Virus record (IMG/VR): IMGVR_UViG_2660238190_000001
DNA: 6,858 bases
Strand: one strand, 5' to 3'
DNA from: a virus
Lineage: Duplodnaviria; Heunggongvirae; Uroviricota; Caudoviricetes
Below, one piece after another: positions 452-6,858 of the stretch; within the stretch, counting starts at the first letter, position 1; the number at the start of each line of letters is the position of its first letter. Position numbers and translations under genes: made by a program. The notes under the pieces were generated by a model. That model did no database searches and had not been told where the DNA came from. It saw only the letters and a list, made by a program, of their open reading frames with translations.

Positions 452-745
452 ATGAAAAAAATGTTGTTTTCTGCCGCTCTGGCAATGCTTATTACAGGAT
501 GTGCTCAACAGACGTTTACTGTTGGAAACAAACCTACAGCAGTAACACCAAAGGAAACCATCACCCATCATTTCTTCGTTTCGGGAATTGGACAGGAGAA
601 AACTGTTGATGCAGCCAAAATTTGTGGCGGCGCAGAAAATGTTGTTAAAACAGAAACCCAGCAAACATTCGTAAATGGATTGCTCGGTTTTATTACTTTA
701 GGCATTTATACTCCGCTGGAAGCGCGTGTGTATTGCTCACAATAA
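452..745 (+). CDS. bor: Bor outer-membrane lipoprotein (lambda Bor / Iss family, serum-resistance moron), 97 aa
   Basis: Translation from ATG 452 (MKKMLFSAALAMLITGCAQQTF...RVYCSQ) matches lambda Bor over its full length as I remember it; signal peptide with lipobox LITGC; AGGA 7 nt upstream of ATG 452. The track ORF starting at 404 has a 16-aa extension without RBS support. Convergent with Rz, as in lambda. Confidence 0.9.
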   Translation: MKKMLFSAALAMLITGCAQQTFTVGNKPTAVTPKETITHHFFVSGIGQEKTVDAAKICGGAENVVKTETQQTFVNGLLGFITLGIYTPLEARVYCSQ

Positions 746-776: not shown

Positions 777-1238
777 CTATCTGCACTGCTCATTAATATA
801 CTTCTGGGTTCCTTCCAGTTGTTTTTGCATAGTGATCAGCCTCTCTCTGAGGGTGAAATAATCCCGTTCAGCGGTGTCTGCCAGTCGGGGGGAGGCTGCA
901 TTATCCACGCCGGAGGCGGTGGTGGCTTCACGCACTGACTGACAGACTGCTTTGATGTGCAACCGACGACGACCAGCGGCAACATCATCACGCAGAGCAT
1001 CATTTTCAGCTTTCGCATTAGCTAACTCCTTCGTGTATTTTTCATCCAGTGCAGCAACATCACGCTGGCGCATCTGCATGTCAGTAATTGCCGCGTTCGC
1101 CAGCTTCAGTTCTCTGGCATTTTTGTCGCGCTGGGCTTTGTAGGTAATGGCGTTATCACGGTAATGATTAACAGCCCATGACAGGCAGACGATGATGCAG
1201 ATAACCAGAGCGGAGATAATCGCGGTTACTCTGTTCAT
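777..1238 (-). CDS. rzpD: Rz inner-membrane spanin (i-spanin), 153 aa
   Basis: Near-identical by recollection to lambda Rz ([29 protein letters not shown]...KYINEQCR); N-terminal TM segment then coiled-coil-like periplasmic part; ATG overlaps the stop of the upstream endolysin (ATGA). Confidence 0.92.
836..1018 (-). CDS. rzoD: Rz1 outer-membrane lipoprotein spanin (o-spanin), 60 aa, embedded in the +1 frame of Rz
   Basis: [24 protein letters not shown]...[16 protein letters not shown]: lipobox VVGC and proline-rich mature part, matching lambda Rz1 by recollection; lies entirely within Rz in a different frame. Confidence 0.85.
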
Positions 1239-1732
1239 TGCTTACCCCACAAACAGATTTCACGCTCAATCTCACGACGAGTCATGAGACCTTTCCATTG
1301 CTTACCGCCAGCATATGTCCAGCGACGTAGCTGATCACATGCGCCTTTGATATCACCCTGGTTTATTTTGCGAAGAAGCGTCGATATTCTGAAATTGCCA
1401 GCACCCACGTTGTAGACGAACGAGTAAAGAGCGCCGCGCGTTGTTTCCGGTATATCGACTTTGATGTACGGGTTAATTTGTCTGGCGACAGTGGCAAGGT
1501 CTTTATTCAGGAGGGCTTTGCATTCTGCTTCGGTATACGTTTTACCGGGAATGATGTCTTTTCCTGTATGCCCGTGACATACAGTCCATACGCCAACGAT
1601 ATCTTTATATGGTATGTAGCTGACACCTTCCAGACCATCGTCACCACTCGGACCAGTGATGAGCACAGACGCTATGGCAACAGCCCCACCACCAATAGCA
1701 GCTGCTACAGCCTTGCGTAATGATGGCGACAT
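1235..1732 (-). CDS. rrrD: SAR endolysin, phage 21 R21-type true lysozyme (T4 E-like, GH24), 165 aa
   Basis: N-terminal Gly/Ala-rich weakly hydrophobic signal-anchor-release segment ([20 protein letters not shown]), then E-x8-D-x5-T catalytic spacing ([17 protein letters not shown]) as in T4 lysozyme; strong recalled similarity to phage 21 R and K-12 RrrD. Start ATG overlaps the holin stop (TAATG). Confidence 0.92.
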
Positions 1733-1947
1733 TATTCACCTCTCGCAGCCTTACGCTTATCTTCTTTAATCTTGAAATAAAGGTTTGTCAGGTACGTCAG
1801 CAGGCCAAATACCAGGCTACCCAGCACTCCAATTGCCGCCCACTGTGAGGGCGTGACTTTATCTAGCAGCTGTAAAAACCAGTACCCGGCACTACCTGCT
1901 GAGGTGCCATAGGCGACACCCGTTGTTAACTTATCCATGGATTTCAT
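1732..1947 (-). CDS. essD: Pinholin, phage 21 S21-type class II holin with dual-start motif (M1/M4), 71 aa
   Basis: [26 protein letters not shown]...[17 protein letters not shown]: two TM segments, Met1-Lys-Ser-Met4 dual start (antiholin/holin), charged C-terminus; matches S21/EssD by recollection. GAGGT-type SD upstream. Confidence 0.92.
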
Positions 1948-2057: not shown

Positions 2058-2092
2058 TCAAAAAATGGAAAAACCCGCTCGACGGCGGGTTT
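2058..2092 (-). terminator. Rho-independent terminator on the minus strand upstream of the holin (tR'-like late terminator)
   Basis: Minus strand reads AAACCCGC-CGTCGA-GCGGGTTT followed by TTCCATTTTTTGA (8-bp GC-rich stem, 6-nt loop, T-rich tail); about 110 bp upstream of the S start. Confidence 0.6.
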
Positions 2093-2244
2093 AAGCTGTG
2101 TGACGAAGTAACCACTCTTAACAGCATAACCAATTTTTTACGTACGTAAACCACTAAATGATATTTGCGAGAATGCTACCGAGTATTGAAAACACCACTA
2201 CAAATACATAAGCAAATCTCAACAAATAACCAACAAATAATTTC

Positions 2245-2280
2245 CAGTGTTATTTTAGCTGATTTAAATTGAACCTTCAA
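2245..2280 (-). promoter_or_regulatory. Candidate sigma70 late promoter (pR'-like): -35 TTGAAG, 17-bp spacer, -10 TAAAAT on the minus strand
   Basis: Minus-strand hexamers at 2280-2275 (TTGAAG) and 2257-2252 (TAAAAT) with a 17-nt spacer; predicted start near 2245 would give a transcript of about 185 nt ending at the 2058-2092 terminator, similar to the lambda pR'-6S-tR' layout. Motif-only call. Confidence 0.3.
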
Positions 2281-2436
2281 ATTATAGAGCGCTTATAAAT
2301 AACAGCCGTTAATATAAATTGGCTAATAGATTTATTTTTATTCAGCCAAGAGCTATGAATAGGATTCGATAGAAAAAAGTTCAGATAAAAATAGAGATCT
2401 ACTTCACAAATCAAACGAGAAACCAAAACTTACATC

Positions 2437-2466
2437 TTGAAATAATCACATTGATTAGATGAATAT
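2437..2466 (+). promoter_or_regulatory. Candidate nmpC promoter region (weak -35/-10 matches) in the AT-rich 5' region
   Basis: TTGAAA at 2437-2442 followed 17-18 nt later by TGAATA/GAATAT; AAAGGG SD-like element 6 nt upstream of ATG 2520. Hexamer matches are weak and alternatives exist. Confidence 0.2.
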
Positions 2467-2519
2467 TTATCGCGCAGTGACATCATTTTTTAATAATAGT
2501 TCAAAAAAAAGGGCTCACG

Positions 2520-3617
2520 ATGAAAAAATTAACAGTGGCAATTTCTGCTGTAGCTGCATCAGTACTGATGGCGATGTCTGCTCAGGCAGCTGAAATTTAT
2601 AATAAAGACAGTAACAAGCTGGATCTGTACGGGAAAGTTAATGCTAAGCACTACTTCTCCTCTAATGATGCAGATGATGGTGATACTACTTATGCCCGTC
2701 TTGGCTTCAAAGGTGAAACCCAAATCAACGATCAACTGACTGGTTTCGGTCAGTGGGAATATGAATTCAAAGGCAACCGCGCTGAATCTCAAGGTTCCTC
2801 CAAAGATAAAACCCGTCTTGCCTTCGCTGGCCTGAAATTCGGTGACTACGGCTCCATCGATTACGGCCGTAACTACGGTGTAGCATACGACATCGGTGCG
2901 TGGACTGACGTTCTGCCAGAATTCGGTGGCGATACCTGGACCCAAACAGATGTGTTCATGACTGGTCGCACCACTGGTGTTGCAACCTATCGTAACAACG
3001 ACTTCTTTGGTCTGGTTGATGGTCTGAACTTTGCTGCTCAGTACCAAGGCAAAAACGATCGTAGCGATTTCGATAACTACACTGAAGGTAACGGTGATGG
3101 CTTCGGTTTCTCTGCTACCTATGAATACGAAGGATTCGGTATCGGTGCAACTTATGCGAAATCTGATCGTACCGACACTCAAGTTAATGCAGGGAAAGTT
3201 CTTCCTGAAGTATTTGCTTCCGGTAAAAATGCAGAAGTTTGGGCCGCAGGTCTGAAATATGACGCTAACAACATTTACCTGGCCACTACCTATTCTGAAA
3301 CCCAGAATATGACTGTATTTGCTGATCACTTCGTTGCTAATAAAGCTCAAAACTTCGAAGCTGTTGCACAATATCAGTTCGATTTCGGTCTGCGTCCGTC
3401 CGTTGCTTACCTGCAATCTAAAGGTAAGGATCTTGGAGTATGGGGCGATCAGGACTTAGTCAAATATGTTGATGTAGGTGCAACCTATTACTTCAACAAA
3501 AATATGTCTACTTTCGTTGATTACAAAATCAACCTGCTTGACAAAAATGACTTCACTAAAGCACTCGGTGTAAGCACTGATGACATCGTTGCTGTAGGTC
3601 TGGTTTACCAGTTCTAA
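2520..3617 (+). CDS. nmpC: Outer-membrane general porin NmpC / Lc (OmpC/OmpF/PhoE family), intact, 365 aa
   Basis: Signal peptide [23 protein letters not shown]|AEIYNK, C-terminal beta-barrel signature ...GLVYQF, porin-typical Gly/Tyr/Asp-rich strands; matches the prophage-encoded NmpC/Lc porin by recollection. No IS interruption in this window. Confidence 0.93.
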
Positions 3618-3625
3618 TCTGATTA

Positions 3626-3667
3626 CGAAAAAGATATGTTGCGGGAGGCGTTGCCTCCCCAACATAT
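3626..3667 (-). terminator. Long hairpin with minus-strand T-tract (terminator for leftward transcripts from the Q operon)
   Basis: Inverted repeat ATATGTTG(C)GGGAGGC-GTT-GCCTCCC-CAACATAT at 3634-3667 (about 15 bp stem with one bulge); on the minus strand the hairpin is followed by CTTTTTC (plus 3627-3633). No U-tract on the plus side. Confidence 0.55.
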
Positions 3668-3755
3668 AAGTGGCTCCCTCAAGCCACTTCCTTTAGAAGC
3701 ACAACCTTGCTTCTAACTATATAAACCTTCTGTTATATATTACCCTTTATTTTTG

Positions 3756-3779
3756 GGGGCGTCTCAACGCCCCATTTTT
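3756..3779 (+). terminator. Rho-independent terminator on the plus strand (nmpC terminator, before Q antisense)
   Basis: GGGGCGT-CTCA-ACGCCCC followed by ATTTTTAA on the plus strand; located between the nmpC stop (3617) and the Q stop (3807). Confidence 0.55.
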
Positions 3780-3806
3780 AATAACTTTTAGTAAACAACT
3801 GGCATA

Positions 3807-4190
3807 TTAATTAGAGTTATTAACAACGATATCCATCTCTAACCGGATATCTAATGCCATTAACATCCCTTCAATTATACCCTCAGCCTTCTGTAACCTT
3901 TTCCCGATATAACCATCAGAGCAGCAATGCTTACCTGCCAGTGACATGAATGTCATACCGACTACATAATAATCTACTAATAAATCGTGCAAATCGCTGT
4001 TGTTCTTTTTCAGACGGGCCATGCACCCGCAAATGATCATCGCGTCATCGTCACAACATTGCGGGCGAGATTTTACTTTTGAAGTAATTAATCCCTTAAA
4101 ACCGGCGGCAATGGACGACCAGGTCACATCTTCATGATTATTAGCCGCCCACGATCCCCAACGCTCAAGAACCATCTGAATATCACGCAT
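3807..4190 (-). CDS. quuD: Q-like late-gene antiterminator (DLP12 QuuD-like), 127 aa from ATG 4190
   Basis: [12 protein letters not shown]...[16 protein letters not shown]...KHCCSDGY: Cys-rich, recalled similarity to K-12 QuuD. The track ORF starts at a TTG (4205); ATG at 4190 has GGAG 7 nt upstream and gives the 127-aa form. Confidence 0.82.
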
Positions 4191-4275: not shown

Positions 4276-4416
4276 TCATACTCCTGCTCCTGTCAGGGTT
4301 TTGGCGTAATTCTTCAGTATTCGGTAATCGGTCAAAACAGAACCGGGGAAACGATATAAGCGCAGACGCCCCCAGCGGTGGCGAAGAAGTTCTGCCATAT
4401 TAAACTCAAACATCAT
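4276..4416 (-). CDS. ylcG: Small nin-region protein YlcG-like, 46 aa (below ORF-track cut-off; found by hand translation)
   Basis: Minus-strand ATG at 4416 gives [46 protein letters not shown], stop at 4278-4276; start overlaps the rusA stop (ATGA). Position between rusA and Q matches DLP12 ylcG as I recall. Confidence 0.6.
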
Positions 4417-4775
4417 TCATTCCCCATTTCGGTGATGGTCAGTTCCAGCCTCCCACCTTTGGTAACAGGCATCTTCACAACGCGGTAATCAACGACCTGA
4501 GCATCATCCAGCCAGAAACCTGCTTTAGTGAGTGCGTCAAAAGCGGCTTTTTGCAGATTATCCAGGTCACGGCGACGGCGATCCGGCATGTGGCACTCAA
4601 TGCGGATTTTCACAGGCATAGCCAGGCCGATATCCAGCATTGCGTTTTTAATGATTCGGGCGACGTTATCGCGGTATGCCTGCCCCTCTGCGCTGATGTG
4701 CGTGCGCCCGCGATTATGGCGGTAATAGCGATTATTGCTCGGAGGCCAGGGTAGTGTGATGTGGTAAGTATTCAC
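4413..4775 (-). CDS. rusA: RusA Holliday-junction resolvase (RusA endonuclease family), about 120 aa from GTG 4775
   Basis: [26 protein letters not shown]...[18 protein letters not shown]...[11 protein letters not shown] matches K-12 RusA by recollection including the acidic residues. GTG at 4775 overlaps the ybcO stop (GTGA); the longer track ORF from ATG 4838 overlaps the ybcO C-terminus by about 22 codons and is less likely. Confidence 0.85.
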
Positions 4776-5062
4776 GCCTTGATTACCCCCTCTTTCAGCC
4801 AGATAACCTGCGTTCTCGCCATACCTTCCAGCGCGCATTCTTTTGCGTGCTCAGCATCGACAAAATGCGTGCGGCGGTCGATTTCGGCGTGACAGGCAGA
4901 ACAGGCAATGGTGGCAATAAGGTCTGGCGGTTTAATACCGGTGCCGCACAATCCAGCCAGCCGGATATGTGCCAGTACAGACGTTTCAGGGTTGCCATTA
5001 CATACGCCAGGGATTCTTACCTGGCATTCCCGACCACGCGCTGCTTTTCTCAAATCAGCCAT
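4772..5062 (-). CDS. ybcO: YbcO-like nin-region protein (Cys-rich, putative zinc-binding nuclease, DUF1364-type), 96 aa from ATG 5062
   Basis: [32 protein letters not shown]...CSACHAEID...: Cys cluster; AAGGAGG 4 nt upstream of ATG 5062; recalled similarity to K-12 YbcO. The track ORF (from 5101) includes 13 extra N-terminal codons. Confidence 0.8.
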
Positions 5063-5870: not shown

Positions 5871-6323
5871 TTAGTGACGCGGGTCTGTTATTATGCGAGA
5901 AGGGTTTCCGTATAAAACAAGGACCTTACTTCCTTGAGTAAATAACGGATCTTTGCCTTGAACAATGGTCATTAAATTCCCATTCTCAGTTTCGACAACA
6001 TATTCCATGCCTGTTTGTTTTGTTGCTGAAGATTCGATTGCTGCCCCGGCAATACCACCAATGACTGCACCACCAACGGCACCAACGATATTAGAACGAA
6101 CTCCCCCACCAAGCGCAGAACCAGCGGTTGCCCCCACGGCAGCCCCAGCAGTCCCGCCTAACGCGGAAGTCCCACTGATATCAACCCCCCTGGCACTAAT
6201 AACTGTACCAGCGATAGTTCGATTAACCATGCCCACAGAGCCAACAGAATAACTATTTGGCGATATATTTTGTGCGCATCCAACCAACACTAAGAGTGGA
6301 GCAATTACGAATAATCGCTTCAT
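5871..6323 (-). CDS. SlyB/Pcp-like outer-membrane lipoprotein with glycine-zipper region, 150 aa
   Basis: Signal peptide with lipobox LVGC (MKRLFVIAPLLVLVGCAQN), central Gly/Ala zipper (GGTAGAAVGATAGSALGGGVRSNIVGAVGGAVIGGIAGAA), C-terminal segment GMEYVVETENGNLMTIVQGK...SKVLVL resembling the SlyB C-terminus (GVELEIRKDDGNTIMVVQKQ...QRVVL) as I recall it. ATG overlaps the stop of the upstream ORF (ATGA). Confidence 0.75.
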   Translation of the reverse strand: MKRLFVIAPLLVLVGCAQNISPNSYSVGSVGMVNRTIAGTVISARGVDISGTSALGGTAGAAVGATAGSALGGGVRSNIVGAVGGAVIGGIAGAAIESSATKQTGMEYVVETENGNLMTIVQGKDPLFTQGSKVLVLYGNPSRIITDPRH

Positions 6324-6664
6324 TTAGCTACCCTAACAGGAAACATTGGACGAGAAAGATCAACACTTTCTAATGCTTGCAAGAACTGCGTTATGTTGTT
6401 TTGCACCGCGCGATTAACAGATTCGCGTGCTCGAACAATACCGTAGAATGCGTAACTGGCTGGAACAGTACCGGTAGACTCAATATCCTGCGTATATATA
6501 ATATCACCATTCGCACGGTTGATTATTTCATACCTTGCAATTGCTTTAGTTGTCATTGAAACACCAAAAGCAGGAACGTCAAGAGCCAACACTTTAACAT
6601 TTAAGCTAACCGTATTTGGTGAACTATCACGAAAAATAGTCATTCGGTCGAGTGCTTCCTGCAA
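6320..6664 (-). CDS. Unknown protein, either intact (about 107 aa from ATG 6643) or a 5'-truncated remnant of a longer gene interrupted by IS1
   Basis: Track ORF begins at a TTG (6664) only 17 bp from the IS1 end; the first ATG is at 6643 with AGGAAG 11 nt upstream. The frame stays open upstream through the IS1 boundary to a stop at 6772-6770 with no start codon in between. No signal peptide or recognisable family in what remains; translationally coupled to the downstream lipoprotein. Confidence 0.5.
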   Translation of the reverse strand: MQEALDRMTIFRDSSPNTVSLNVKVLALDVPAFGVSMTTKAIARYEIINRANGDIIYTQDIESTGTVPASYAFYGIVRARESVNRAVQNNITQFLQALESVDLSRPMFPVRVAK

Positions 6665-6681
6665 AGATTCACGCCAAATTG

Positions 6682-6858
6682 GGTGGTGCTGCCAACTTAC
6701 TGATTTAGTGTATGATGGTGTTTTTGAGGTGCTCCAGTGGCTTCTGTTTCTATCAGCTGTCCCTCCTGTTCAGCTACTGACGGGGTGGTGCGTAACGGCA
6801 AAAGCACTGCCGGACATCAGCGCTATCTCTGCTCTCACTGCCGTAAAACATGGCAACT
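6682..6858 (+). mobile_element. IS1 insertion sequence, left end (IRL plus start of insA); continues beyond the window
   Basis: GGTGGTGCTGCCAACTTACTGATTTAGTGTATGATGGTGTTTTTGAGGTGCTCCAGTGGCTTCTGTTTCTATCAGCTGTCCCTCC... matches the canonical IS1 left end almost base for base as I remember it (IRL GGTGATGCTGCCAACTTACTGAT with one mismatch). Confidence 0.9.
6737..6858 (+). CDS. insA: IS1 InsA (transposition repressor / N-terminal part of InsAB' transposase), partial, 3' end outside the window
   Basis: GTG start at 6737 gives [39 protein letters not shown]..., the zinc-finger N-terminus of IS1 InsA. Confidence 0.88.

Follow-up and report, generated by a model that had tools for sequence, protein, structure and literature searches.

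Late control by Q in lambdoid phages

The late promoter of phage lambda, pR', is constitutive, makes a short terminated leader, and depends on the Q protein for readthrough into the lysis genes. The leader (the 6S RNA) is 194 nt long, and the promoter abuts the Q gene. Promoter-embedded Q-binding elements are known in lambda and in phage 21; the phage 21 element lies between the −35 and −10 hexamers (PMC6606751). There, Q21 binds two direct repeats of TGAGCA.

The closest described relatives of the locus considered here are phages 933W and VT2-Sakai. Their records annotate, straight after the Q gene, a "pR' putative late promoter" (TTTACG-16-TATCAT), a "qut" site, and a "possible rho-independent terminator". 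The 933W promoter overlaps the Q stop codon. In Sakai, dRNA-seq places the pR' start 258 nt upstream of a Term-seq 3' end, and pR' transcripts run to a second terminator at +258 (PMC7547250); the first hairpin there is therefore an incomplete stop. The 258-nt RNA is the precursor of the Hfq-binding small RNA StxS, whose stable part is the 3' 74 nt.

Cargo genes between Q and the lysis genes have also been described, and the SfIV authors already named this region a moron (PMC3851460). Such morons, including SfIV orf47-49 (PMC3851460) and the lc gene of phage PA-2, are low-GC cargo with their own promoter and terminator, lying between Q and the late genes.

The window and its genes

The window (the whole 6,858-nt stretch of DNA analysed, IMG/VR record IMGVR_UViG_2660238190_000001) is the late-control region of a DLP12/PA-2-type lambdoid prophage. 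Its genes are as follows.

452-745, plus strand: bor
777-1238, minus strand: Rz (Pfam PF03245)
1235-1732, minus strand: SAR-type lysozyme (Pfam PF00959)
1732-1947, minus strand: holin, S21 type (Pfam PF04971), with its ATG at 1947; the first late gene after the pR' unit
2520-3617, plus strand: nmpC/lc porin (Pfam Porin_1 PF00267, E = 1e-156), on the strand opposite to the late genes
3807-4190, minus strand: Q antiterminator, 127 aa, QuuD/DLP12 type (PF06530, E = 8e-53)
4276-4416, minus strand: ylcG
4413-4775, minus strand: rusA
4772-5062, minus strand: ybcO

A first-pass annotation, made from the letters alone, had already given the position of Q, the opposite orientation of the porin gene, and a minus-strand terminator at 3626-3667, all of which are confirmed. 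The nmpC gene matches lc of phage PA-2 (record J02580.1), and the DNA of the window is found also in the K-12 prophage DLP12, in PA-2, and in many viable phages (mEp332, ev099, and the PhiR series). One edge of the window carries an IS1 end. Searched against Rfam (E <= 1), the whole window returned zero matches, and the leader described below corresponds to no curated RNA family; ARAGORN found zero tRNA or tmRNA genes in the window.

The window Q protein is 77% identical to the VT2-Sakai/933W Q (both PF06530), 84% to that of PhiR55_1, and 88% to that of Lambda_ev087, and thus 77-88% identical to the Q proteins of phages with the TTTACnnnCGTAAAAA promoter type. It belongs to the same Pfam family as Q21, although the relationship is distant (E = 2e-6 against the Q21 structures 6P18 and 6JNX); lambda Q belongs to a different family, PF03589. 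An assignment of Q as phage 82-like, with an 82-type pR', was rejected, the Pfam and PDB comparisons having placed it in the Q21/933W family.

A probable 933W-type promoter unit next to the holin

On the minus strand, the segment 2150-2060 is very probably the late promoter, Q-loading site, and terminator of this DLP12- or PA-2-type prophage, homologous to 933W pR'. This reading, built on sequence comparison, involves three adjoining elements and a palindrome.

2137-2150, minus strand: 14-bp perfect palindrome TTTACGTACGTAAA, then an A tract; it covers the −35 TTTACG and the upstream spacer
2123-2150, minus strand: pR' homolog, with −35 TTTACG (2150-2145), a 16-nt spacer, and −10 TATGCT (2128-2123)
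2093-2116, minus strand: initial transcribed region AGTGGTTACTTCGTCACACAGCTT, equivalent to the "qut" annotated in 933W
2060-2092, minus strand: tR' equivalent, with hairpin AAACCCGC-cgtcga-GCGGGTTT at 2092-2071, then TTCCATTTTTT to 2060

Read on the minus strand, the unit runs TTTACG tacgtaaaaaattggt TATGCT gttaag AGTGGTTACTTCGTCACACAGCTT AAACCCGCcgtcgaGCGGGTTT. The alignment of positions 2151-2069 to VT2-Sakai and 933W spans 83 nt, 77% of them identical, and takes in the annotated promoter, "qut", and first terminator (E = 2e-13 pairwise; E = 8e-8 against the whole phage collection of 2.3 Gb). The homology extends from the −35 hexamer through the first hairpin: TTTACG-16-TATGCT in the window corresponds to TTTACG-16-TATCAT, and the two share the transcribed region AGTGGTTAC... 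and the hairpin core CCCGC/GCGGG. With Sakai it ends at about +49. Beyond the first hairpin, 933W continues to its second terminator and StxS, whereas the window continues to the holin. The 3' part of the StxS precursor is missing from the window and is present in two relatives (L064 and L067).

The nmpC-holin spacer was aligned in the window and 74 relatives (55 distinct variants in all), the relatives being IMG/VR loci with near-identical Q together with phage and K-12 records. Positions 2147-2113 are identical in all 75 sequences, and there are zero variable columns from 2151 to 2099. The transcribed region is thus invariant among relatives; it is also nearly identical across three Q clades. 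In relative L039, an IS1 lies between the −35 and −10 hexamers. The hexamers themselves match the consensus at only four of six positions each, with a 16-nt spacer, which puts the promoter under the threshold of the promoter scan.

For any 3' end within the T run of the second Sakai terminator, the 258-nt distance puts the Sakai start 2-9 nt past TATCAT. By homology, transcription in the window would start near A2116, giving a leader of about 50 nt and a terminated RNA of about 50-55 nt. The segment 2093-2116 is the expected site of a sigma-dependent pause and of Q loading. The window leader has no evident −10-like pause hexamer with A2 and T6; the Sakai equivalent is TACATT. AAGAGT was considered as a lambda-like pause element at +1 to +6, and was dropped because the Sakai-derived start falls inside it. 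The searchable, possibly incomplete supplements of Adams 2021 and Ettwiller 2016 showed no start or 3' end near K-12 ~577,229 and ~577,280.

The hairpin at 2092-2071 (−11.6 kcal/mol) spans approximately +25 to +46 from the inferred start. It is the sole terminator found by scan between pR' and the holin, and its homolog in 933W and Sakai is the first annotated "possible rho-independent terminator". An intrinsic terminator about 110 bp before the holin had been predicted at the first pass, and both parts of that prediction stand, the hairpin lying 124 nt and the U tract 113 nt before the holin ATG. The scan found one terminator-like site in 1948-2519, somewhat above chance (0.3 +/- 0.6 in shuffles); homology supports the terminator much more strongly than the scan does. 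In about 24 of the 75 sequences GCTGG replaces GCGGG, weakening the stem to −5.4 kcal/mol, and the window carries the strong form. By comparison with Sakai, the window hairpin may nevertheless be leaky.

A palindrome over the −35 hexamer

The −35 hexamer forms the left half of the palindrome TTTACGTACGTAAA, and this palindrome/promoter motif occurs as a single copy in the window. Its 933W counterpart, TTTACGATCGTAAA, is a perfect palindrome too; the two central bases alone distinguish DLP12-type sites (GTAC) from 933W-type sites (GATC).

A broader comparison used 79 loci picked solely by their shared transcribed-region motif, each paired with its upstream Q. Each Q subclade among them has its own element at the same position.

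Window type: TTTACGTACGTAAA
933W type: TTTACGATCGTAAA
ev087/PhiR55 type: TTTACAATCGTAAA
SfII/569R4 type: GCGTACGC
cdtI and Stx2d types: (T)GCGGTCCGC(A)
Three more distant groups: TGTTATAACA, TGGAATTCCA, and ATTCGTTACGAAT

In eight of the ten promoter types the element is a perfect inverted repeat, with 4-7 nt per arm and a shared centre; in the remaining two, which are derivatives, the outer arms pair and the central bases do not. This centre lies 23 nt upstream of a TAAGAG anchor, or at about −27 relative to the inferred start. Among shuffled 34-mers, about 24% contain arms of 4 nt or more at any position.

Because the palindrome changes with the Q subclade at a fixed position, the element at 2150-2137 is probably a Q-binding site. 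Such covariation is the pattern expected of a promoter-embedded Q-binding element, and by this comparison it ties 2150-2123 to the window's own Q. A wider proposal, advanced tentatively and at slightly under an even chance, is that Q proteins of the 933W/DLP12 branch of the Q21 family bind this palindrome, each subclade having a version of its own at the same position. The candidate element is an inverted repeat, in contrast to the direct repeats bound by Q21. A search of the accessible literature found no paper naming both QBE and 933W, and the subclade-specific palindrome is the one mildly new point of this analysis.

nmpC as inserted cargo

In the window, the promoter and the Q gene are separated by 1.66 kb that includes nmpC. 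Four further features define this interval.

2151-2519, no strand assigned: nmpC regulatory region, the right part of the block; 26-30% GC; contains 2252-2280
3626-3667, minus strand: intrinsic terminator for transcription leaving Q, with hairpin 3634-3667 and tail CTTTTTCG at 3626-3633
3756-3783, plus strand: intrinsic terminator found by scan, GGGGCGTCTCAACGCCCC then ATTTTTAATA
3831-3842, minus strand: left mosaic joint, where Q DNA homology to the 933W and ev087 types ends after ...TTAGAGATGGAT (codons LEMD)

The window, 933W-type, and ev087-type Q genes diverge from one another at this same joint, and the megablast match to ev087-type phages ends at query base 380. Homology to 933W, PhiR55_1, and others restarts exactly at the −35 hexamer, at 2150. 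From this gap in homology, between 3831 and 2150, it follows that the nmpC block entered between Q and pR', as the first-pass annotation had supposed.

The block (2151-3830, 1.68 kb) comprises the last seven Q codons, both terminators, nmpC, and an AT-rich control region. The minus-strand hairpin folds at −25.5 kcal/mol (z = −4.2) and has no U tract on the plus strand; the plus-strand terminator (−13.9 kcal/mol, z = −4.3) is probably that of nmpC. A list of "promoter islands" in K-12 includes the nmpC spacer (PMC3661553), and an nmpC promoter has been reported (PMC11677980). The 189-bp spacer between Q and nmpC occurs solely in nmpC-carrying phages (36 of 36 records) and is therefore part of the inserted block. 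In 933W and Stx2d_112808, Q abuts pR' without the block. With its own promoter and terminator, deviant composition, and absence at the same joint in related phages, the block behaves as a single inserted unit, a moron. It is the PA-2/DLP12 instance of the Q-to-lysis moron pattern, with no difference of substance. Late transcription never crosses nmpC, because the gene is upstream of pR' and oppositely oriented.

Alternative late promoters

The first-pass annotation had put pR' elsewhere in the nmpC-holin spacer, at the minus-strand hexamers TTGAAG (2280-2275) and TAAAAT (2257-2252), with a lambda 6S-like leader of about 185 nt stopped at 2092-2071. Its placement of the control unit on the holin side of nmpC agrees with the 933W/Sakai alignment, although the promoter homolog lies about 130 bp further downstream. 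The hexamers are present, they score 9/12 with a 17-nt spacer, and the arithmetic is sound: some 183 nt separate a start at about 2245 from the point where the U tract ends, much as in lambda. A score of this kind is at chance level in such AT-rich DNA (26-30% GC), where the scan of 1948-2519 gave one promoter-like site and local shuffles gave 2.1 +/- 1.1 (nine versus 11.9 +/- 4.1 over the whole window). Moreover, no other 30-nt stretch of the spacer is as variable as the one holding 2252-2280 (pi = 0.12). The exact TTGAAG-17-TAAAAT form occurs in two of the 75 sequences; 23 have TCGGCA, TCGATG, or similar in place of TTGAAG, and most of the remainder, K-12 among them, have an extra A inside the −10. 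It is missing from every other phage with the conserved unit, homology to 933W, PhiR55_1, and SfII beginning only at 2150, and the conserved promoter homolog lies between it and the terminator. No conserved promoter was found 185-195 nt upstream of the terminator, and the lambda pR' region shows no sequence homology to the window. TTGAAG-17-TAAAAT was therefore rejected as pR', a role for which we see scarcely any probability; with a leader of about 50 nt, the likeness to lambda's 194-nt 6S RNA is a coincidence. Equally improbable is a pR' directly 3' of Q, within 3668-3806, with 3626-3667 as tR' and Q-modified polymerase reading antisense through nmpC. That is the canonical place of pR' in lambda and 933W, and a strong minus-strand terminator does follow 140-180 nt past Q. 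However, 3668-3806 contains no copy of the promoter/palindrome motif with three mismatches allowed, and no minus-strand promoter-like site at 9/12; inspection by eye was likewise unconvincing. The restriction of the Q-nmpC spacer to nmpC-carrying phages also argues against this reading, as do the closest Q relatives, in which the TTTACnnnCGTAAAAA promoter either overlaps the Q stop (933W) or follows other cargo (ev087, PhiR55_1). The absence of a motif copy downstream of Q bears out the first-pass view that Q works at a distance: it must act in trans across about 1.66 kb.

A third candidate comes from reporter work on DLP12, the same K-12 locus. For control of essD-rrrD-rzpD by Q and RpoE, PMC7918800 refers to Rueggeberg 2013 and 2015, and it describes a cloned promoter fragment, "-121 to +650". 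Q is likewise said to control these genes from the essD side of nmpC, although this promoter, essDp, maps upstream of the 933W-type pR' homolog and is said to use RpoE. The primers given there map to K-12 576,753 and ~577,520, which would put +1 at ~576,872, or window ~2469. An RpoE-like TGAACTA-N16-TCACT is found at 2503-2476, exactly where essDp is reconstructed, about 355 nt upstream of the pR' homolog (K-12 −35 at 577,195). On this primer-based reconstruction, it is unlikely that the Q-responsive promoter is this RpoE-type site, with Q working alongside sigma-E. Loading at sigma-70-dependent pauses is the rule for every Q protein examined structurally (PMC6606751; bioRxiv 10.1101/651190). 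The essDp site adjoins the nmpC start, which could explain its conservation, and in other phages it is the 2150-2060 unit, not essDp, that accompanies Q. Transcripts from essDp must still cross that unit, so essDp and the pR' homolog are not mutually exclusive. The unit might instead be an inactive relic in this DNA, the lysis genes being expressed, if at all, only from host-type promoters. Many carriers of the segment are cryptic prophages, and it is very widespread (see below); IS1 splits the promoter in L039, the hairpin is weakened in one third of relatives, and the window itself ends in IS1 sequence. Against this, the window has an intact Q gene, its promoter and palindrome match those of viable phages exactly, and its hairpin has the strong form; we consider a relic very unlikely. 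An active 933W-type unit at 2150-2060 is the reading followed below.

The same layout in other phages

The order Q, nmpC, promoter unit, holin occurs also in the viable phages PA-2, mEp332, ev099, and the PhiR phages. More generally, the unit stands apart from Q in SfII, PhiR55_1, 569R4, cdtI, Stx1_499, and Lambda_ev087, in which last the homolog, TTTACA-16-TATGAT, was found by eye at about 4776-4803 of the locus (L003). Distances from Q to pR' vary widely.

933W: −12 nt (overlap)
Stx2d: 11 nt
PhiR55_1 type: ~600 nt
Another group: 774 nt
SfII, 569R4, cdtI, and Stx1_499 types: 830-2450 nt

Genes in the gap are on the reverse strand in annotated examples, with the exception of Lambda_ev087, where one of the two main genes is forward. 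The layout read at the first pass is correct and ordinary: cargo, mostly reverse-strand, is common at the Q/pR' joint. Of 5426 complete E. coli genomes, 2656 carry the 260-nt region that surrounds the unit. The prophage is very common, and its unit is an ordinary case of a 933W-type pR'.

A model for late transcription

The following model draws on the 933W-type homolog and on established knowledge of Q proteins; to these the present analysis adds homology, conservation, the pairing of Q with palindrome, and the mosaic joints. Sigma-70 RNA polymerase would initiate constitutively near A2116, pause early, make a leader of about 50 nt, and mostly terminate at the hairpin 2092-2071. Q, encoded within the same prophage (3807-4190) and expressed from the early-right operon, would diffuse to the promoter in trans and bind its promoter-embedded site, probably the palindrome 2150-2137. 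It would then join polymerase paused within the first 15-25 nt, and the Q-modified polymerase would read through the hairpin into the holin, lysozyme, and Rz genes. The logic would be that of lambda, with a shorter leader and a promoter apart from Q. Because Q is a diffusible protein, the separated layout is mechanistically unsurprising.

Implications

These results correct the map of an E. coli prophage region that roughly half of the complete genomes carry. Its late promoter responsive to Q is very probably a compact 933W-type unit abutting the lysis genes, rather than TTGAAG-17-TAAAAT; by primer mapping it would also differ from the RpoE-type essDp of DLP12 reporter work. The Q/pR' joint emerges as a frequent landing site for cargo, and cargo that lands there escapes late transcription.

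If the palindrome is indeed the Q-binding element of this branch, a symmetric Q dimer would load on it, versus the head-to-tail pair on the Q21 direct repeats, and a sequence rule would follow for which Q activates which late promoter. Moreover, because the DLP12-type and 933W-type sites differ in two central bases only, the Q of a DLP12-like cryptic prophage might cross-activate the pR' of an Stx phage, or vice versa.

A palindrome at the late promoter

The −35 element of pR', the late promoter, is covered by a palindrome (window 2137-2150) whose sequence varies by Q subclade (related loci L085, L088, L089-L093, and L095-L173). Its centre is nonetheless fixed, lying 23 nt upstream of the shared TAAGAG anchor in eight of ten promoter types, and the sole difference between the window-type and 933W-type palindromes is at that centre: GTAC in the window, GATC in 933W. 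The palindrome has dyad symmetry, where Q21 has direct repeats, and is a candidate for the element bound by Q.

One related prophage, L039, carries an IS1 within the pR' spacer (~6140-6920, corresponding to window 2129-2137). The target duplication is AAAATTGG, possibly with one further flanking base, and the element separates the −35 and palindrome from the −10, a naturally occurring late-promoter knockout.

The hairpin downstream of pR'

The 3' arm of the tR'-equivalent hairpin (window 2071-2092) reads GCTGG rather than GCGGG in about 24 of 75 related sequences. The variants contain no compensating change, and their stem is weaker, at −5.4 rather than −11.6 kcal/mol; in one third of carriers the terminator is probably leaky.

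Two further related loci, L064 and L067 (~8025-8290), match the window in Q, nmpC, and pR'. Beyond the first hairpin they contain a 933W-like long leader, with StxS-like sequence, in place of the S21 holin region, and the divergence therefore places a mosaic joint directly after the hairpin, at about window 2067.

Flanking genes

Three features lie toward the far edge of the window:
5871-6323, minus strand: ORF upstream of the nin-like genes
6320-6664, minus strand: ORF upstream of the nin-like genes
~6680-6858: IS1 end, InsA N-terminal zinc ribbon (PF03811, E = 3e-22)

One of the two ORFs has a weak glycine-zipper match (PF05433, below the Pfam cut-off) and is a probable lipoprotein; the other has no Pfam match. 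Both may be further cargo genes. The prophage is broken by the IS1 end at the window edge.

Between Q and the late control unit

Two hairpins separate Q from nmpC, the porin gene, and an RpoE-like motif adjoins the nmpC start:
3626-3667: hairpin, U tract in one orientation only
3756-3783: hairpin, U tract in one orientation only
2476-2503: TGAACTA-N16-TCACT, RpoE-like

Given the order of the hairpins, transcripts converging from the Q side and from nmpC would run past each other's terminators, with a predicted overlap of about 150 nt.

The RpoE-like motif coincides with the +1 of the DLP12 promoter essDp, as reconstructed from published primers (PMC7918800). Motif and start together correspond to K-12 ~576,842-576,872; the start falls at about window 2469, and the pR' homolog of 933W type lies some 355 nt downstream.

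The 1986 PA-2 record (J02580.1) annotates a CRP-binding site at 1067-1087. That interval maps exactly to window 2096-2116 (plus strand, CTGTGTGACGAAGTAACCACT), which is the initial transcribed region of pR' and is invariant. The late control unit, 400 bp from the porin start, accounts better for the conservation of the annotated site.
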